Below, one piece after another: positions 1 through 63,921 of a stretch of DNA of 64,000 nucleotides. The stretch comes from Mayamaea pseudoterrestris (taxonomy: Eukaryota). The position numbers were made by a program, and so were the translations under genes. The notes beneath the pieces are model-generated. The model saw nothing but the letters and a program-made list of their open reading frames with translations, was not told the origin of the DNA and ran no database searches. Location of the stretch: assembly GCA_027923505.1 (NCBI GenBank), contig BROI01000003.1, forward strand, positions 806,001 through 870,000, given 5' to 3'. The number at the start of each line of letters is the position of its first letter. The stretch's first letter is position 1.

Positions 1-414
1 CCAAGGAGACTCGGTCGTGGAGCCGGGCGCTTCCCTCGCTGGAGGTGAGTTTGATGCGTTTTCGGTGCGAATGACCGGAGAGTTCCGATTCGTCCAAGTG
101 ACAGCAAGAACTCGTCGCGATCCGGGATGGGAGGCAGCGTTCAAGCTTTTGCTTTGCTTGTGCGTTTGGTTTTAACTCTTGGTTGCTCAAAGGCTATGAT
201 TGTAGTGGTTTCAAAGCCACGATTCGGTCCTGGTTTTGCTGCATTGGAGGAAATTCCGAGGCTCGCAATGCTGGCGGATAACCCAACGAGGCACAAGTTG
301 TTGCAACGTGCACCTCGCAGGACTCGTGCATATATGAAACGTCGCAGTTGCAAATGTCGAAAGACCAGGACGCTTTGTTGTCTTACACTGCTATAAATTT
401 GTCTTTTACGTCAG

Positions 415-2025
415 GCAAAGAATAATGTGAGCAGCAGTCGACCCGTCGTCGACCCAGCTCATTTCGAACCTCTCGGTTCATGGACGTCGGACAAGCAGAA
501 TGCATCTCGACGCGACAATCCATTCATGATGACTTGGGTACCTGGAAAATCTCGAGAGTCTGTGCCGAACATGACTCATGGTACGAATGAAGATGTAGCT
601 TTCGTTTTGGCCGATCGCCTCTAGTCGTACCTCATGCTCATTCGTCATTCTCATTCGACCTTGCTAGGCGACGGCGTTTATCTGTACGACGATCGAGGCA
701 AGCAATACCTTGACTGGACATCGCAAGCAGTCTGCTCGAACCTTGGACACTCGCTGCCGGATGCAGTCATTGATGCAGCTGCTTATCAAATGAAGCTGTT
801 GCCTTACACGTACGTTGAAAGCGCTTCTACTAGTTGACTCGAATTTTAGTAATGAAGTGCTCACAAGTTAAACACCTTCTCTTTCAGCTACGGAGGCATT
901 GGCATAACGGAAGTGCGCACTCGAATGAATCAACTTATGGCGGAGATTCTTCCTGGAAACATTCGACCAGCTGTCTTTCCGTCCTCGGGCGCGGAAGCAA
1001 ATGAAGCTGGCATTATGATGGCGCGTCGGTTCACTGGTCGACGAAAGATCATTAGCTGGTACCGATCATATCACGGAGCAACTGCGAATGCTGGAGCAGC
1101 CACTGGAGACTATCGACGCTGGTTTGGATCGGACGATGTTCCCAACTTTGTCAAGGCATTTAATCCATTTCCGCTCTTCTTCCATCACGGTGGCAGCGAT
1201 GCAACTGAGGAGGAGCGCGTTCAATCTGCATTAAACATGTTGGAGGAACAGATTTTGAATGAAGGCCCCGACAATGTGGCGTCAATCATGATGGAGAGTA
1301 TTGTTGGTGCAGGTGGGTGTCTGATCATGCCTCCTGGTTACATGCAAGGCATTAGAGCAATCTGCGACAAGTATGGCATCCTCATGCACATGGACGAGGT
1401 CATGGTGGGTTTTGGACGCACCGGAAAGCTTTTTGGATTTCAGAACTACGACGGGGTTATGCCTGACATTATCACTTGCGCCAAGGGCATTTCCGGAGCC
1501 AGTCTGCCACTGTCGATGACGGCTTGCTCACAGCAGATTCTCGAATACTTTGACGACAAGCCGCTTGGATGGGGTTCGACGTATCAAGCTCATCCGGTGG
1601 CCATGGCGGCTGCTTACGAAAGCGTTAAGCATATTTTGAAGGAAGACATTGTTGGTCGCGTTCAAAACATTGCGCCATTGTTCGCTGAAGGTATGCAGGA
1701 CCTTGCGAACCGACACCCATGCATAAAGCAATTTCGAGCAATCGGCCTATTTGGTTGTTTTGACGTTATGGACATTAGCGGATCGAATCCAAAGCTTCAG
1801 CACGAGGTTTCGCATGACGCCTTTCACAAGTACCGAGAGGCATTTACCGAGAATGGTTTGGTTGGGCTTCATCGATACCCTCATATCCATTGCGCTCCTC
1901 CACTCATAATCAAGGAGCATGAACTCCTGGATGGCTTTAATCGCCTTGATAGAGCGTTGTCAGTTTTAGACGACGCCTTGGGCTTTTACAACGCGAGCAA
2001 GGACGTGTCGCTTGTCGGTCAATAG
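415..2025 (+). CDS. Class-III PLP-dependent aminotransferase (omega-amino acid/taurine/beta-alanine-pyruvate type); exons ~415-580, 668-809, 888-2025; true 5' end unresolved
   Basis: Three ORF fragments join in frame over GT-AG introns 581-667 and 810-887 (..THGDGVYLYDDRGKQYLDWTSQ..LPYTYGG..). Motifs SGAEANE, SYHG, DEVMVGFGRTG and the PLP lysine in CAKGIS. Confidence 0.9.
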
Positions 2026-53257: not shown

Positions 53258-56200
53258 CTAGTTACGCCACCGACTATTTCCCTCTGATGACGGAGGTCCA
53301 GGCGCACGGTCACGGGTTTTGCTATCATATCGACCTCCTCCGGGGTAGGACGAACCGCCGGTTCCGGCGTTGCCAGATCGACTACTGCTGCCAACTCCGC
53401 CAATAATGCCTGCTCCAACTCGGTCACCGCCTCCGCCAGCATCGCCACCACGTTTTGATGGTGGAACATATTTAGTAGGACCTTTCTCAAGCTCCTTTCT
53501 GCGCCGTTCATCATCCATGCGTTGCAACTCCTTTTCGCGTGCAGCTTCCTCCTTTACTTCCTTCTCGCGCCTCGCGTCCTCGCGGGCCTGTCGCTCCGCT
53601 TCAAGACGAGCCTCCTCCTCTTCGCGTAAACGTCGTTCTTCGTCTTCCACTATTCTCCTTGCTTCGTCGGCTTTGCGCTCCTTGGCGCGTTCTAGTTTAC
53701 CACGCTCTGCGTCTAGCTCAGCTCGTTCCTCGGCCACCCTACAGGCTGCTTCATGCTGCGCCTTGCGACCAACCATAACCTGCTCATGGAACTCGGCAAT
53801 ATACTGAAACGCGCCAAATGTATCAAGAAGCTGCTTTTCCTTGACATCTGACTCCCATTTAGAAGTGGCTTTCTTGATCTTTTCAATGTTGTCTTGCTCA
53901 TACTGTGTTCGTTCGCGTGCAACGCGCTCTTCGTATTTTTTCTTAATCAAAGGCAACTCCTCAATACGAATCGCTCGGACCAAATAATCCAACTTCTTGG
54001 CCGTCTCTTTCTGTTTGCGTTCCGCGTCTTCCTTCTTTTTACGAAGCTTCTCCTCGTGCTCTCGCTGGAGCGCGTCGGCATCGATCGCATCAAGTTTTTC
54101 GGCCGTGATTTCCTCCGCCTTTTTGCCCATGGTTGCGCGCAAAAAACGCAACTTTTCTTTGTGCTCCAACTCCTGCTGAATCTTCTTTTGCTTCTCAACT
54201 TCGCGCAAACGCTGCTCTCGCTGCATGCGTAAATCATCCTCTGCACGACGAGCAGCTTCCTCCTCAGCCTTTCTACGAGCTTCCTCGCGAGTTTTTTCCT
54301 GGGCAATGCGCTCTGCTTCTTCCTTACGATCCTCCACCAACTTTTTACGCTCTAAAATGGCCGTATTCTCTGACTGCAGGTTGGCGCGAACATGTTCATA
54401 CAATTTGCTGCGGCGAGTGGCAACAAGGTTGCTATCGGCGGGGGCGAGGACTTGGTTGACAGCTTCCAACTGCTTGGCCAAGGTGGTCAACTGGGAGCGC
54501 ATCGCATGCGACTCCAAGTCTGTGTTGCCGAATCGAAGACACCCAGCACGATGATCAATGCGGACGCTCAAGGCCTTGGTCTGTGTCAATAACACAATAG
54601 CCTTTTCCACTTGCTCAAAAGTCATGTCAAGTCCGGAGGTGAGCTTCTTCAAGTGATCAATCGACACCGTATGATAGGCCGAAGAAAGACTTATGACAAG
54701 CTTGAGAAGCAAAACCTTGGTGAGCGGCTTGACGTAGCGACCCAACGAAACAATGCCAATGTCGTCCATTCCCTCCTCTCCAACGCGGGCTTTCAGTTGC
54801 TCCAAGAAAGGTCGCGTCTTTTCTACCATGATCAAAGGATCCGCATTACTCTCCAAAACATCGTATAAGTCGCGAAAGTATTGTGGAACCTCATCCAAAA
54901 TGTTTTTGGCTTTAATTTCCTGCAGCAAAGCTTCACGCGTTGGATTGCGCGTTTGAAATCCCAGCAAGGTGGCCATGCGTGCCATCTTTTGCTTAACAAT
55001 GTCATCCTCAGCCGTGGAAGCAATTCCGTGTTCCTTGTTTCCTTTAGCGCTCGCTTGTGTTTGTGGAATGCAAAGGGCCGCCAAGAGAACGGCCGATGCC
55101 TGCATTTCCTTCATTTCGGGTGTCATTCCGCGATTGTACTCGCGCGACAAGCCGTAAAATTTGAAGGCTGCAAATGCATGAAACAAGTAGTTTTCCGAGA
55201 CCCAAAAAAGTGTCGTTAGCTTTTCGTAGTAGTTTGCCATAAGCTTGGCCTTTGGAGGCTTCTTGCGCGCTTGTGAGATTTGTAGGATATTGTAAATATC
55301 TTCCACTGTGCGAAAGCCTTCCTGGTAGCGATGCAAGTCACTGGCTGTTTCAAGTTGAGCAAATCGCGTCTGTAAATGAAGCTCAATGGATTCTGTAGAC
55401 CATCCTTCCCATCCGCGGACCTGCAAAACGATGGTGAATGAACGACAAAGTGAGAGACGCGATTCAATCGTTTGAATAACCGCACCTTGAGAACGACATG
55501 ACTTCCACCTTTTCTCAGACTCTTTCATACATTCATTGAGTTTCTTACCTTACTGTTGGCTTTGAAGTCGTCTGCCGTTGCATCTCCGATTCCATACTGC
55601 CTCAAGTTGCCTAAATGGGATCGCAGCATTTCGCAAAGGTGTCTAAACTCGACGCGTCGCTTGTAATTGCGGCAAAACTGTAACGCATTCTGGGCCGCCT
55701 TGTGGTAAACATGCTCTAGCTTTGAGTTAGATCTGAGAATGTCCAAGACGGTGCGATAAATCTCCCAAAGAAACTTGAGCGCCGGCATGAGCAGTGTTGA
55801 ATCTCGCTGACTCTTGGCTGGGTCCGTCGACATGGTTGTCATGAGAATGGATTGCGGCGAAACTCCAAACTCGTCATCTTCCGGCGAGTCTGAGGCGAGT
55901 GAAGTTTCATGCGCTAAAGACTCTGCATCAACTAGTTGCTTGGCCGCTTGGCATTGTAGTTCAGCTTGCTCCAGCAAATGCAGCATGACCTTTTCCAACG
56001 AGCCTGGCGCTTGCGTTTGCGAAAGATTGCGATACTGATGCAAACCATCCTTGGCTTCTCGACTCTTGTGAAGCTTCAGGCACAGATTAACATATTTCAT
56101 CATGATTCCTTCATAGGCCGGACTCCAAGTACGATGGCGGCGCGAGGAAAGTACTTCATGGAGCAATGCAAGGGCGGCATCATCCTGCTGAATATGCTCG

Positions 56201-56265
56201 AGTTCAATGGCGCGTCGGAGAGCCAGCTCGGGCTTGTGAAAAAAGGGATTTGATCCTCCAGACAT
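53258..56265 (-). CDS. EIF3A: Translation initiation factor 3 subunit A; exons 56265-55549, 55420-53258
   Basis: KPELALRRAIEL, KDGLHQYRN, LWEIYRTVLDILRSNSKLE, NYLFHA, PCI region and long coiled coil; intron 55421-55548. Confidence 0.96.
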
Positions 56266-57010: not shown

Positions 57011-59007
57011 TTACGCGAATTGTCCTTCGCTGTCGTCAATATTGTCGCCAGAGACTTGTAGTGTCAGGCTGTTGCGGTGCAATCCGTCTCCAGCGCTTCC
57101 AGTAGACTGTCGCCGTTGCTTCGTGTAACCCCGAGTTGATGCGACTCGTGCCATGTACAGATAAGTCAATAGCGACCCGACTAAAGCACTCAGTAGGCTC
57201 AGCACAACAACGGCAACATCATCGGAAGGCGTCCGAGTCCAGTCACTCGTTCGTTCTCTTGGGAGTGCAACAAACCCTTTGTCCACCTGACAATTTAGCT
57301 CACGAGTTGCAAACGGTTGAACTTGCGCCACCAATACTTGTGCATCGCAAAGTTGCAAGTCTTCTGAACATCCATCCATCAAGGGCGTCAATATCTTGCC
57401 ATTGTAGAGTAATCGAAAGGCAAAGTCGCTCTTGAATAATATCAAATCGCGGTCCGCCTCCAACTTGTGAATTTCTAGAACCAAGTGGCTCGCATAGGGC
57501 GTCCACTTGCGGTCAAATACACGCGGCCCGAGTGACATGAGCAACGGCATAATGGTTGTGTCATGACCCGAAACAAGTGATAGTTTAATAGTATCTTGCT
57601 TGTTTTCCAAGACCTTGTTGATGCCTTCCATAATCTCGGCCCACAAAAAGCTCATGGACAATTTGGCGTAGGCGGCATCATTGTCCGTTTGTTGTAAAAC
57701 GTAGCCCTTCACATCCCAATCGTATAGCCGCTGAAACAAGTTTTCGCCATAGTCGTCTTCATCATGTAATCGCCGCCGACGATTTTCATCGCCCGACGAC
57801 TCTCGCTTTACACTTGCATCGGCCGACATTGCAACGTCGCTTGTGTAATCATTGACAGCGTCCGGCAGCGTACGATCCGTGCAAATGGTGGTCATGAGAC
57901 AGTCAATGGCGTCCATTTTTTGGTCATGAGGTAGTTGGAGAACGTTGCGCTGAAAGTCAAGCAGCTGTTTGGCCTCCAAGGACGTCATGAAAGACCTGAA
58001 AGATTGCGACGCTCGAAACTCGGTCTCCATTTGTAGCAATCGGGGACAAACCTTATCGTTGGCTCCCAAAATGTCCCGACTACGATCGGCTGTATGAAGC
58101 GGAAGTAACGGATACTCCTGCTTGGCAGCAAAGTAGTTGTCAATCTCTTGTTCAAACATTCCTCGCAGTAAGACTTGACCTGACATCTGCGGGAAAAGGG
58201 TGCGAGTGAGAAGCATTTTTTCTTACTTGTACACAACCTATGTCCTTGCTGCACACGTACAATTGTCCTTTGATCATCATCTGCACGTAACCGGAGCTTA
58301 TCCTTGCTCCAGGGCTGGCTATTGCCTTGAATGCCGTCATCGTCAGTCGTTTCGTCGTTGACTGCAACGTCAATCAGTTGCATTCTCGCATCCGGTTGCG
58401 TCGTGTCATCCTGTTCGTTGCCATTACTACTATCATACACGTACGCCTTTCGAAAGTGCCTGCCATTGGTTATTTGCTGCTCGTAACCTTGAAGTAGCAA
58501 TTGACCCATTTGACAGGTTCCGTTCAAAAGGTTGGTCAAATTGTTCTTTGGATAGACGAGCGAATCGTAATGTTTCTCAAATAGAAACATTGCTCCCGAA
58601 TCTGACGTATCAAAAGACTCTTCTTCTTGCTGCTCCACAACCTTTGGTGATGGCGGAGCCAACCACGTGGTCAGGTCGCAGGACCAGGTTCCAGTATCGG
58701 CATTTGAGTATCCATTCCAGCAGTGCAAGTCACTGGTCCATGGCGTTCTTGCTCCATGCCGAATGACAGCCGTGACATGAGCGAGACGTGATTTTGACCC
58801 ATACTTCTTGCTGTTGTCGAGTGGAGGAATGGATCGCGACTCCATTTGCGATGGTGTCGAGCAGTATGGCGGGTATGCATCGTAACGTTGGTACCATTCC
58901 TCTGGTTTCTTCTCGTGCCATTCGAGTCGATCCGTGTTGGCAGCATTTATTGCCAATGCTATCAAAGCAGAAGCTACAGCATGAAACGAGTTCAAATAAT
59001 GCTTCAT
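57011..59007 (-). CDS. Histidine acid phosphatase (clade 2), signal peptide + C-terminal TM; exons 59007-58261, 58186-57011
   Basis: RHGARTP nucleophile motif, GQL..GYEQQ..NG, GHDTT proton-donor motif; intron 58187-58260. Confidence 0.92.
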
Positions 59008-59334: not shown

Positions 59335-62300
59335 ATGCAGGGAGCCATGAGCCAATCGCCACGCAAACTTCCGCCAAGCCCTCGAGATGCTGGATCAACA
59401 GGCAGCAACAGTACGAGTAGCACCGCCAATCGTCGACTATTTACGCAACCGCCATCTCCAAATCACATCAAGAATCGAACACCTTCCGAAGACACTCTAT
59501 CGGATTCCACCTATTCGGCCGTTTCAGTGACATCAAGTTATCGCCACCATAATTTCCCATTCGCGACGCAAACACCTGCCAAACCGGAACCTGTTCTAGT
59601 CAAGGACTCGAACCATAAACCAAAAACGACTGGATCATTTGGAGTCTTGGTCATTGGACTTGGAGGCGCCAATGGAACCACCATGCTGGCTGGAATACTA
59701 GCAAATCGACGTAACTTGGAGTGGCGTGGTCCCTACGGCGAACATCGGAGCGCCAATTACTATGGCTGCTTGACACAACTAAATCAACGAGGCATTCACG
59801 GCGGCGTTGGCTACAAGGATCGTGTCAAGGGACTCGCAAATGCCAACATGGCGGCGATTGGTGGATGGGATATTCGACCAGCCAAGCCAGGTGATGCACT
59901 CTTGGAGGCGCAAATATTGGACTATGATTTGGTACGACAAGTGCAAGACGAAATGAACAAGACCAAGGTGTTTCGAGGCATTTACAATCCACTATTTATT
60001 GGAGATTCGCAGCATGCGACGGCGACGCATGTCATATCGAAACAGGAAGCTCCGACGGACTCGGAAGCCTTGAAATGTTTGCGCGCCGACATTCGATACT
60101 TTAAATGGCGCAACGGGGTTGTCGGACACACAACCGTCATTTGGAGCGCTAGCGTAGAGCCCAATTGCGACTTGTTACCGAATTATGAAACGGCGGATGA
60201 CTTGCTAGAGGCGATTGAAATGACAGAGGAGGAGCGCGGCGGCCCACTGCCACCGTCAGTACTGTACGCGACGGCGGCATTGCTTGAAGGATGCTCGTTC
60301 ATCAATGGCGGCTCTCAAAATACAGTCTCGTGTCCCGGATTAGCCGACTTGGCCATGCAACAAACGGGTGTGTATTGCTTGGGTACTGATTTTAAGGCTG
60401 GACAAACCAAATTCAAGACGGCTGCTGTTGAGTATTTGCGAACCATGGGATTGAAGCCCCGCGTCATTGCGTCATCCAACCATCTAGGTAATAATGATAT
60501 GCGTAACATTGGATCGGCAAGCTCAAACATTGGAACAGCTAAGCTAAGAGTGAAACACGACATTTTTGCACCGTGGCAGGAAGATGAGTTGGATCATAAG
60601 GTGAGCATTATGTTCACTGAGTTTATCAACGACGACAAGCGCGATTTTGTCGAGTACACAAGTCTTGCCTTCTTGGGGCAACCTCATACCATGGTGACTT
60701 ATACGAGGGCGTCGGACTCGGTCTTGTGCGTCCCACTGATGATTGACGGAGCGGTTTGGTGCGACTTCTTCTCGTCGCGCAGCTGGCCCTACGAGCGAGT
60801 GGCCAAGGCATTGGCGTATCTGTTCAAGGTCCCAGAGGGTTCTGCCAAAGGTGTCGACCCAGGATTCTTCCGCCAAATGCAGGAGCTCGAGGTTCAAGTT
60901 CTGGCCGCGCATGAAGCGAAGCGTGGTAGCTTGAAACGAGAAGGCTCTATAAAGAAGCGAGTCCGAATTCGTCCAGACGAAAAGGTGGCTGAATGGGCCA
61001 TTCCGCATGATGCTCGGATAGTATGCGCTGGATTGGCATGTGTAGATATGCAGCTTAATGCCGCTACTGGTGGCGATGGAGGAGAGGCAATTGAAACTTT
61101 TGCTGGCGAAACATCCATTGGAGGCGGTAGTGTTTCCATGGCATGCAAAACGTTGGCGAGGCTGTGTCACGGAGCTGCTCTCGATGATGGCTACATGCAA
61201 ATCACTCCACCTGTTGTCAGTGCTGTTGTTCCACTTTGCATGGTCGGAACGGACTCGACTGGAGACAAACTCATTGGATTGCTCGAGGACTGCGGCGCTG
61301 CTTGTCGTAACGTTGAGACCAGATTTATCAAAGCCTCGCGATCGAGCGATCCAAACGCTCGCACGGCTCTTTCCATTCTTCCTATTTACCAAGATGGACG
61401 GCGAGGGTGCTTTTTCGACGCCGCCTCGAACGTCACCTTTTCAGCTCGGGAAATGACGCGCTTGATCAGCAACCTTTCCGCTGGGTCCACAAATCCAGAA
61501 TTAGATATGTCTCACATGTCGGCAGATGACGTTGATAATTACCAAGCGGATCTCGAGCAGATGACCCCAATTTACGGAGGCTTTGTCTTTGGGTATCCTC
61601 ACTTGATGCCGAAGATGGCTGGAGAAGCATTGGCGCAAATCCTTCTTGAAGCACGAAGTATCATGATTGAAGGAGGCATTGTCACGATAGACCTCAATGG
61701 GGTTCCACTGGGATCTTTTCCAGTTCGAGATGGTTTGCGTAGTGCGGGGAGTCTAAAATTGGATTCAGTAATTGGGCCTGCTCTCGAGCATGTTGATATT
61801 TTGCACATGAATCAGGAAGAACTATGTCTTTTAACAGGTTGCCATATTGAGGGAACTGCCGATTCATCACGAGAGGATGACTTCATTATTGCTCAAGCTA
61901 TCAATCTATTTCTGCGGTGCGGCGTTGCAGTTGTCGCCGTCACGAGAGGTCAGCAAGGGAGCTTCGTCGTTTGCAACGACGCCGATCGTTTTAAGCAAAG
62001 TCGAGCACTTCCAGCGTCTTGGATAGACTGCAACGCCAAGGTTGGATGTGTACAGTTGCCCAAGAACACATCAATTAATACGAATGGGGCAGGAGATGCT
62101 TTTACCGCCGGACTTTTGGTAGCTGCAATGCTGCGACACACAGGCCTCACAATGCCGAGCGATATTTCGCCTTCTGTTGTAAGCAGTCCGCGTGCGCCGC
62201 CTGCAAGTTCATTGACTCGAAAAGAAACCATTCCTGCAAGTGGCAAGTCCAAGCCTGACAAGAAACTTACACCCTACTCTCTATTCATGAGGGAGCACTA

Positions 62301-62706
62301 CATCTCTTTGAAGAAGAAATGCAACGATGACAAGAAAGCTATCTTTTCGACATGTCATGAAATGTGGGAGAACTTGACGGAACACGAGAGAGATTTGTAT
62401 GAACGAAAGGCGGCGGACGAAAATGAGGACACTGGCAAGCCGGATGCGGTTGCATTGAGTGTATTGACAGACATTAACGTATTAGACTCCACTGATCCGA
62501 AGCACGCACCGAGCCCCAGGGAGTCGGACACTCCCCGCAGTATGTACATGACAAACCGATCATTGACCCTTGAATCGGCCGTAACATTTGCCAGCCTAGT
62601 GGCGGCGTACCACGTTGACGAAAGTACGAGGAACCGACAGCACATTGACATGAGCAAGCTTATTGAGCGAGCTACAGTTGTACCGAAAGGTCTTGAAGAA
62701 ATATAG
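59335..62706 (+). CDS. INO1: Fusion: myo-inositol-1-phosphate synthase + PfkB/ribokinase-family kinase + HMG box
   Basis: MIPS motifs [48 protein letters not shown]; PfkB motifs [42 protein letters not shown]-like [27 protein letters not shown]. Confidence 0.9.
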
Positions 62707-63093
62707 CATGCCGAAGCAAAGATACAAATATGAGCTGTTGTTCTGGTTCAGGTCCCTTAGCGACTCATGCAATTATGTATGCCTTACTCATCCAGTTCGT
62801 GAAAGGTGGCGTTTATTACTTAGTTTGCCGGCACAAGATTTGATTAGAGCATAATTTCGATTTACTTTGAAGGCTGCTCGTTGCAATGTTTGGAGCTTGC
62901 CAATGTACGCTTTCACGGTTAAAGCGAATCAAACACGTTTAAATGTGTCGCACCGGCTTGAATAACGGTGATTGATACGTCGCGCCGAGCCGCGCTGTTC
63001 GTGAGGTTGATCCCGAAATGCATTTGATGCGATTCATCCAAGCGCCATCATATCCTTTCATCCGCAGGTACTTCTACATTTAGTATATACGGT

Positions 63094-63921
63094 ATGCTGC
63101 GATTCAAGAAATCTGGACAGAAACCATTGTCCCGCAAGACGACAGTGTGGCATTGGCGTGGCGCGCGAGCGGTGGCTCGAAGCAATTTGGCTGCAACGCA
63201 TGACAATCGATCCGCTTCGTATGGCAAACTAGCTTTCTACCAGCAGCTTGGTTCCAATGACGGCTGCCTCGATTCATCGTTGGTGAGCGTGAGCTCGTCG
63301 ACGAACAACGAATTGCTCGCACCATGGTCGACTGATGTCTCGTCGCAGCGTTGCTTGTTTGCGACACCGATCAGATCCGACGAATCGCGCGACGACCAAA
63401 ACACTCCTCCATCCTGCAACAACCACGAAACTGATTCTCTTGTTCAATTTGATCCTCGCCGCCACGACAAGTCTAAGCGTGTCATCTATGGAACGGTGCG
63501 AAGTCTTTTGCCTGGGCCTTTTCGCCCAGCGGCGGCGTCCATTGTTCGCGGCGATGACGTCTCAAATTCACCAAATGGTTGCGGGTCCTACTACGGCGAG
63601 TTTGATGTGACTGAGACCTTTTCGTCGCCGCCAATTCCTACTAAAACCACGACTTTGGAAGATCTTAAAAGTGTCCAGCAAGATCAGACACATTTCCGCT
63701 GCCGCGCCGACGATGAGTCCGCTGCGACGCCACAATCACGCCCCTCGGATGAGATCGCGCCGCCTCCAGCTGCGACTGGATTTACAACTACTACACATCT
63801 AGGGTTCAAGGTACAGTATGGAATGACACAAATAACTCGTTCGCGTCATTCAATGAGCACTGCTGACCTTTTCTCATTGCTCACTTTGCCATTCAGATTA
63901 CTGTCGTTTCCGAGCAACTAA
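63094..63921 (+). CDS. Hypothetical Ser/Thr/Pro-rich protein; exon boundaries uncertain
   Basis: 275-codon ORF with no recognisable domain. Confidence 0.4.
   Translation: MLRFKKSGQKPLSRKTTVWHWRGARAVARSNLAATHDNRSASYGKLAFYQQLGSNDGCLDSSLVSVSSSTNNELLAPWSTDVSSQRCLFATPIRSDESRDDQNTPPSCNNHETDSLVQFDPRRHDKSKRVIYGTVRSLLPGPFRPAAASIVRGDDVSNSPNGCGSYYGEFDVTETFSSPPIPTKTTTLEDLKSVQQDQTHFRCRADDESAATPQSRPSDEIAPPPAATGFTTTTHLGFKVQYGMTQITRSRHSMSTADLFSLLTLPFRLLSFPSN

Follow-up and report, generated by a model that had tools for sequence, protein, structure and literature searches.

The locus described here lies in a stretch of 64,000 nucleotides from the diatom Mayamaea pseudoterrestris (GenBank assembly GCA_027923505.1, contig BROI01000003.1, positions 806,001 to 870,000 of the forward strand), which we call the window and to which all positions refer. 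On the plus strand of the window, 59335..62706 is a single open reading frame (ORF) that runs from ATG to stop, 1123 codons plus the stop, in one exon and without the interruptions whose absence an earlier note on this DNA had already pointed out. The ORF encodes an inositol-phosphate synthase (MIPS) domain joined to a kinase of the PfkB family, and within the kinase lies a segment with the predicted fold of an HMG box. Here, we describe this fusion, its distribution among diatoms, and what it could be doing there.

A frame of this length is very hard to obtain by chance: by our own arithmetic, the odds of 1123 consecutive sense codons are ~(61/64)^1123, or ~1e-23. Base composition is even along the ORF. 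Four sequencing runs of one study, X1 to X4, none of them labeled as RNA in its record, cover the stretch. Contigs of X1 and X4 omit three intervals with CT..AC ends in minus-strand neighbor genes (53213>53271, 55418>55547, and 58186>58261); none of these joints appears in X2 or X3, and X3 contigs read through the second and the third interval. Because the joints are present only in X1 and X4, we regard these two runs as spliced-RNA-like and X2 and X3 as DNA-like, the joints being the sole basis on which X1 and X4 are taken for RNA. In X1, one contig of 3244 bases (59606-62849) spans all three modules (MIPS domain, kinase, and HMG box), passes the stop codon, and ends 143 bases after it, with no joint. 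Positions 59481-59605 are uncovered in X1, from which we make no inference.

These data bear on one rival explanation, an annotation or assembly artifact in which a single frame reads through two or three neighboring genes or through a retained intron. The unbroken RNA-like contig speaks against it, as do the same open frame in 167 homologs (including transcripts marked complete), the conserved protein sequence of the HMG segment, and the helix downstream of the insert, which the PfkB fold requires. The artifact is already contradicted and can be considered excluded for practical purposes. The fusion gene is real: it is a nuclear gene of a raphid pennate diatom, has one exon, and is expressed, with transcription as one unit.

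The features of the gene are given below, with the evidence in parentheses. Here and throughout, counts of homologs by motif or domain cover the 120 listed of the 167 fused homologs, which were found by a search among proteins of 617-1966 residues; many of the 120 are partial sequences.

59335..62706, plus strand: whole ORF (open frame; RNA-like contig 59606-62849 without joint).
59335..59619, plus strand: N-terminal Ser/Thr/Pro-rich basic tail, residues 1-95 (net charge +5, S+T+P fraction 0.41; alignment).
59641..60891, plus strand: MIPS domain, NAD_binding_5, residues 103-519 (Pfam; MIPS matches in the PDB at E 3.6e-61 to 6e-54).
60400-60720, plus strand: Inos-1-P_synth catalytic subdomain, residues 356-462 (Pfam; motifs common with stand-alone diatom MIPS).
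60952..60972, plus strand: KKRVRIR basic motif in the linker between MIPS and kinase, residues 540-546 (pattern match in 98 of 120 homologs).
61000..62142, plus strand: first part of the PfkB kinase, residues 556-936 (Pfam, alignments, fold matches).
Within the latter, plus strand: PfkB landmarks, namely the substrate Asp D571, GGGS 596-599, N826-x-x-E829, and NGAGD 917-921 (nucleotides 62083-62097).
62143..62250, plus strand: predicted disordered linker L1, residues 937-972 (pLDDT <50 at residues 938-975, model residues 389-426; variable in sequence and length).
62251..62427, plus strand: HMG-box insert, residues 973-1031, with predicted helices at ~980-995, 1000-1012, and 1016-1034 (Pfam, profile, model).
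62428..62559, plus strand: predicted disordered acidic linker L2, residues 1032-1075 (model, charge count).
62560..62703, plus strand: last PfkB helix (~1079-1094) and C-terminal tail (alignments, model, fold matches).

The Pfam scan has its matches at the positions that the earlier note had given for the domains. NAD_binding_5 (PF07994) covers residues 103-519 (E 7.2e-61, 206.8 bits against a cut-off of 25), Inos-1-P_synth (PF01658) residues 356-462 (E 4.7e-19, 69 bits against 27), and PfkB (PF00294) residues 816-931 (E 3e-12, 46.9 bits against 25.8). HMG_box (PF00505) matches residues 976-1031 (E 4.4e-5) with 24.3 bits, just below its cut-off of 25.4. The basic linker that the note had seen is also there ([18 protein letters not shown], residues 529-546), and the KKRVRIR motif at its end looks like a nuclear localization signal.

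The MIPS half can be compared with enzymes of known structure. Solved MIPS (PDB 1jkf, 1vko, and 9m53) match the fused domain in HMMER searches at E 3.6e-61 to 6e-54, and its Rossmann NAD glycine motif and the active-site motifs [44 protein letters not shown] and LFKVPEG align to these three structures. The positions corresponding to yeast D320, N350, N354, D356, K373, K412, D438, and S439 are kept in the window's domain (HMMER alignment, our own numbering); we take the catalytic roles of such Lys, Asp, and Ser positions to be those of the yeast enzyme. A second kind of diatom MIPS, stand-alone proteins of ~470-490 residues that are 53-58% identical to the fused domain, was found by a search for shorter proteins (Thalassiosira species, Discostella, Nitzschia sp. 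Nitz4, Amphora coffeaeformis, and Cylindrotheca closterium), several of them complete transcripts. Every motif that we examined (types NGSPQNT, DFKSGQTK, SYNHLGNNDG, DSKR, EDS, and LKAP) is common to the fused and the stand-alone domains. Where solved eukaryotic MIPS has LWTANTER, the diatom proteins have IWSASVEP; because the stand-alone diatom MIPS has the same motifs, this divergence from the yeast and animal enzymes characterizes the diatom clade as a whole and does not indicate decay. We also placed 38 MIPS domains in a tree, where the 17 fused ones from diatoms group together (SH-aLRT 94), separate from the 17 stand-alone ones, and non-diatom fusions sit on long, unresolved branches. Compared with eukaryotic MIPS in general (INO1, MIPS, ISYNA1), the fused domain has the same two Pfam families, the NAD motif, and most active-site motifs, but it belongs to a divergent diatom clade, is attached to a kinase, is paralogous to a stand-alone MIPS, and has lost its core in some orthologs. 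The window's MIPS domain, judged by these motifs, probably converts glucose-6-phosphate to inositol-3-phosphate with bound NAD+. As a side observation, a stand-alone MIPS labeled as coming from a Myxococcota metagenome-assembled genome (P0524) nests among pennate diatom sequences on the tree and is probably diatom DNA binned into a bacterial genome.

The kinase half is a complete member of its superfamily. In alignments, D571, G597-G598, N826-x-x-E829, and N915/G918-D921 are invariant, even in distant relatives; the roles of the GG switch, of NxxE, of GAGD, and of the substrate Asp are presumably those of the corresponding ribokinase positions. The AlphaFold model of residues 550-1123 has a mean pLDDT of 67.9, with a confident core and a confident last helix. 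With VIA-align, the ribokinase-like fold is complete and extends to the helix that follows the insert; the best match is E. coli YdjH (3h49_A, Z 24.9, 293/307 residues at an rmsd of 3.5 A, model range 10..563). Foldseek also recovers this fold, at E 6e-12. The sequence profile finds ribokinase 6ilr as its best kinase match in the PDB (E 5e-6). The fold is the one of YdjH, ribokinase, PsuK, KDG kinase, and IolC (Z ~22-25), with the same GG, NxxE, and NGAGD signatures, but the diatom protein is only ~12-23% identical to these enzymes, matches no equivalog model, and has diatom-specific lid inserts and an insert of ~140 residues, bearing the HMG box, before the last helix. Hence, the PfkB fold is certain in the predicted model, and neither sequence nor fold assigns the substrate. 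The kinase is a member of an uncharacterized eukaryotic PfkB subfamily, and its phosphoryl-transfer motifs are all intact.

A myo-inositol kinase activity would be the natural partner of MIPS, and archaeal and bacterial myo-inositol 3-kinases of the PfkB family have reportedly been described. The diatom kinase shares the superfamily with them and with the plant enzyme MIK/lpa3, but specific similarity to these kinases was not seen among the matches listed. No inositol kinase is among the matches listed for PDB sequence or fold, a result with which kinship is still compatible, and the ESM Atlas returned only generic PfkB clusters for residues 555-940.

The third element sits inside the kinase. 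In alignments, the HMG segment comes after the NGAGD helix (917-921) and before a conserved helix, LESAV.FASLVAA.H (~1079-1094), that belongs to the kinase. In the kinase model, the insert forms three helices with pLDDT 85-89, flanked by stretches below 50 at model residues 389-426 and 485-524; the box would thus loop out of the kinase on a pair of predicted disordered linkers, each ~40 residues long. A profile made from 19 aligned insert segments has ten PDB matches at E<=0.01, and all ten are HMG proteins (nine TFAM sequences, the best at E 1.1e-4, and one NHP1 at E 2.5e-3). Modeled alone, the segment reaches a pLDDT of 81, with helices at 16-31, 36-49, and 52-69. The Foldseek E values of this small model are at least 0.2, such weakness being expected because the domain is so small, and the top rows listed are all HMG boxes except 7plo_I. 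With VIA-align, box 5 of UBF ranks first (66/66 residues at an rmsd of 2.3 A, Z 9.3), and all 50 matches listed are HMG boxes. Conservation in the HMG segments includes the Pro-Tyr, Trp, and Tyr positions of the core and a Lys-Lys just before the box. By profile and predicted fold, the insert is an HMG box, as the earlier note had it, with a Pfam score of the window's own copy slightly short of the threshold. One detail of the note is refined: the box is inside the kinase, not after it. We know of no other HMG box inserted within the fold of a metabolic enzyme.

The distribution of the fusion is wide within diatoms. Both PF00294 and the MIPS families are found in 120 of 120 listed homologs, some of which are MMETSP transcripts marked complete, and NGAGD is found in 108. 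When 24 members were scanned individually with Pfam, NAD_binding_5 and PfkB were found in all 24, HMG_box in 21 (E<=0.01, best 1.5e-6), and Inos-1-P_synth in 19. All named sources among the listed homologs are diatoms (Seminavis robusta, Epithemia, Nitzschia inconspicua, Fistulifera solaris, Amphora coffeaeformis, and a Pseudo-nitzschia model set), two further source labels being incomplete ("Amphip" and "Chae"), and three more diatoms, Cylindrotheca closterium, Fragilaria crotonensis, and Corethron hystrix, come from cluster look-ups. From these sequences, the layout is a general diatom feature, from radial centric to raphid pennate species. Two short conserved stretches are observed at the ends of the protein: SVTSSYRHH (residues 64-72, nucleotides 59524-59550) is kept in the otherwise variable N-terminal tail of pennate orthologs, and the C terminus GLEEI (residues 1119-1123, nucleotides 62689-62703) corresponds to an [EQ]EI end in 86 of 120 homologs and to ALEEI in one non-diatom fusion (P0380).

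The earlier note allowed that the protein might already be annotated in other diatoms, and this is so. Databases name it "inositol-3-phosphate synthase" in five genera (Seminavis, Nitzschia, Fistulifera, Cylindrotheca, and Fragilaria) or, at JGI, "myo-inositol-1-phosphate synthase/sugar/nucleoside kinase." The parts belong to known families, and databases already contain the architecture, under a name whose simplicity is misleading. In the literature, we found no paper describing a synthase-kinase-HMG fusion, in a search that did not extend to supplements, where the gene may be listed under a model identifier; pairing HMG-box with pfkB retrieved only unrelated work, and a bioRxiv preprint that came up dealt with HMG-CoA. 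Kroth 2008 (PMC2173943) notes, in the part of the text available, that each of its two diatom genomes has a gene for inositol phosphate synthase and says nothing more on it, and the available parts of PMC10276504 and PMC6742357 do not mention the fusion.

Relatives outside the diatoms give an order to the assembly of the protein. The kinase profile has 352 relatives at E<=1e-3 among 1.84 billion representatives searched. They include MIPS-PfkB fusions that have no HMG match, one of Phaeothamnion confervicola, an ochrophyte (P0288), and three others (P0304, P0305, and P0380), and stand-alone kinases of the same subfamily occur in the raphidophyte Fibrocapsa, the brown alga Discosporangium, the red alga Timspurckia, and the amoebozoan Stenamoeba. 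In the joint alignment, the NGAGD helix of the non-diatom sequences is followed directly by the last helix, and KKRVRIR is missing, or partial in P0305. Because these fusions lack the HMG box, the link between synthase and kinase predates diatoms, and the HMG box, its linkers, and KKRVRIR are additions of the diatom line; box, linkers, and basic motif are already there in Corethron. P0304 and P0380 start with a hydrophobic, signal-peptide-like stretch, which may direct the fusions of these lineages to another compartment.

What could such a protein do? We tentatively propose, at a chance that we set a little under even, a specialized inositol-phosphate enzyme that is probably directed to the nucleus; we infer both activities, the substrate, the localization, and the binding of DNA. 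In this proposal, the fused protein would be a two-activity inositol-phosphate enzyme set apart from the housekeeping stand-alone MIPS, its kinase would act on myo-inositol or on the MIPS product, and the diatom-specific KKRVRIR and HMG box would bring it to the nucleus, to DNA or to a chromatin partner. We take the window's protein for a probably active synthase and kinase because all the motifs of both enzymes are kept; the kinase could work in the same pathway, on inositol or the MIPS product, because the fusion is old; and a nuclear or DNA-linked role is suggested because the HMG box and KKRVRIR are specific to diatoms. Plants offer a parallel. According to the available portions of two papers, MIPS1 of Arabidopsis moves into the nucleus, where it is bound to its own promoter (PMC3597657), and catalysis-independent nuclear roles have been proposed for it (PMC13210883). 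This makes for a MIPS that is nuclear, bound to a promoter, and partly independent of catalysis, but the plant protein is without a DNA-binding domain or a fused kinase, and the diatom protein has a DNA-binding-type module built in. The chromatin-sensing function suggested in the earlier note is plausible.

Several observations weigh against the proposal. One concerns the MIPS domain itself: several fused proteins no longer have its catalytic core, the missing stretch being approximately the one that starts at [10 protein letters not shown], includes [10 protein letters not shown], and ends at DDKRD. The motif SxNHLGNND is absent from 18 of 120 homologs, in some merely because the sequence is partial. 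We built a FastTree tree of kinase halves from four outgroups and 96 of the 120 homologs, namely the ones that have both kinase motifs and a length of 830 residues or more. Of the 96, 11 are without SxNHLGNND, a distribution that needs four changes on the tree, and all 11 keep NGAGD and the HMG motif; one clade of eight core-less members includes the Fragilaria crotonensis cluster. Because the kinase tree resembles the species tree, the core-less proteins are orthologs and not an old paralogue. The earlier note had suggested that the protein could couple de novo synthesis with salvage, and since orthologs have lost the core, such a coupling cannot be the function of the whole family. In these sequences, the loss of the core is the strongest evidence that the function shared by the family does not everywhere require MIPS catalysis, which is dispensable in some lineages. 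In addition, C. closterium and A. coffeaeformis each carry a fused and a stand-alone MIPS; with such a paralogue present, the fused copy is not needed for bulk inositol synthesis. Finally, in the window's domain the position of yeast K369 is Ile and that of S323 is Ala (HMMER, our own numbering), the K369 loop being variable across the family and its alignment ambiguous.

The loss of the core would fit a protein that is a regulator first, a kind of eukaryotic trigger enzyme, with the kinase-HMG unit as a metabolite-responsive core and the MIPS-like domain as mainly a ligand-binding or oligomerizing scaffold that carries no flux. The repeated deletion of the catalytic subdomain with NGAGD and the HMG box retained, the availability of a stand-alone MIPS in diatoms, the conservation of the HMG box and the linker motif across diatoms, and the catalysis-independent nuclear roles reported for plant MIPS in the available portions of PMC3597657 and PMC13210883 all favor such a regulator. 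We still find it rather unlikely: the window's protein and most orthologs keep every MIPS motif of the stand-alone enzyme, which favors retained catalysis, and a MIPS-PfkB fusion older than the HMG box fits a metabolic origin.

The HMG box is itself a reason for caution about our proposal. Over the 19 segments, the net charge of the box core lies between -1 and +5 with a median of +1, and its median pI is 8.3; the kinase body has a net charge of -16, and the core is followed by the acidic linker. HMG boxes that bind DNA are generally much more basic than this. The window's own box, as said, is just under the Pfam threshold. In profile and three-helix fold the diatom box is like those of HMGB1, TFAM, UBF, SOX, and NHP6A, but it is inserted in an enzyme, its core is nearly neutral, and the residue aligned to what we presume to be the usual intercalating wedge is small and polar. 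The nearly neutral core and the acidic linker would suit a purely metabolic, non-nuclear bifunctional enzyme, in which the insert binds no DNA and serves instead for protein interaction or autoregulation beside the kinase's nucleotide site. The position of the box would suit it too, between the NGAGD helix and the last helix that completes the PfkB fold; in ribokinase structures, that helix presumably lines the adenine pocket. We regard this as unlikely, given that the sequence and fold of the HMG box have been preserved across diatoms, that the Lys-Lys before the box is conserved, and that so is KKRVRIR, which is missing in the non-diatom fusions.

A further weakness of our proposal is the substrate of the kinase. 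As matches of the model, no more than ~3 Z units separate ribokinases, YdjH, PsuK/pseudouridine kinase, KDG kinase, IolC, and adenosine kinases, and NCBIfam gives weak generic PfkB matches far below cut-off (the IolC model scores 23.8 bits against 300). With matches this generic, the kinase could act on a sugar unrelated to inositol, either feeding MIPS with glucose-6-phosphate or serving another cyclitol or osmolyte pathway in which the MIPS-like domain makes a different cyclitol phosphate. That the diatom MIPS clade diverges from the solved eukaryotic enzymes (IWSASVEP against LWTANTER) would agree with this reading. Yet the stand-alone diatom MIPS, which presumably serves as the housekeeping enzyme for inositol, has these divergent motifs too, and fusion partners would usually be expected, as a general principle, to share one pathway. 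This makes an inositol-unrelated substrate very improbable.

Our proposal of a nuclear-directed inositol-phosphate enzyme has a bolder extension. In bacteria, trigger enzymes such as PutA, NadR, and BirA join an enzyme to a terminal DNA-binding domain. The diatom protein could be a hard-wired eukaryotic counterpart: a synthase-kinase tethered to chromatin that would make nuclear inositol phosphates by a lipid-independent route, with the binding of DNA or chromatin and the kinase gating each other through the HMG box beside the nucleotide site. The likeness to PutA, NadR, and BirA would be in the working principle only, as the folds are unrelated and the diatom HMG box is inserted and not terminal. 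We consider this extension speculative and decidedly unlikely.

Upstream, and head to head with the fusion gene, is a two-exon histidine acid phosphatase gene (57011-59007, minus strand), with 327 bases between the two start codons. It has His_Phos_2 in both exons, an RHGARTP motif, a signal-peptide-like N terminus, and a C-terminal hydrophobic stretch, and its intron (58187-58260) is confirmed by spliced contigs. We considered whether this neighbor could be an inositol-phosphate phosphatase and rejected the idea, since its nearest solved relatives are ACP6 and prostatic acid phosphatase and not phytases; it was not used as support for any reading of the fusion. Its first exon alone gave no match. 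Further upstream, a gene for eIF3a (53258-56265, minus strand) has eIF3a_PCI_TPR-like and PCI domains and an intron of 128 bases (55419-55546) that splits a codon and is confirmed by spliced X1 and X4 contigs. Downstream of the fusion gene, an ORF of 275 codons (63094-63921, plus strand) has no Pfam match and almost no X1 depth, and no inference was made from it. A metagenome scan for synteny around the fusion gene returned two short contigs only (L001 and L002), both without neighbor genes.

Diatoms are major primary producers, and this conserved protein of theirs is known only under an automatic name. The old MIPS-PfkB fusion ties an uncharacterized kinase subfamily to inositol metabolism, which bears on the first phosphorylations of the lipid-independent route to inositol phosphates. 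If the trigger-enzyme extension were true, that pathway would have found its missing early kinase, for inositol or inositol-3-phosphate (Ins3P), in the fused PfkB subfamily. Diatoms also make the contested idea of MIPS moonlighting at chromatin directly testable, since they have a paralogue with an HMG box and some lineages in which that paralogue is without MIPS catalysis.

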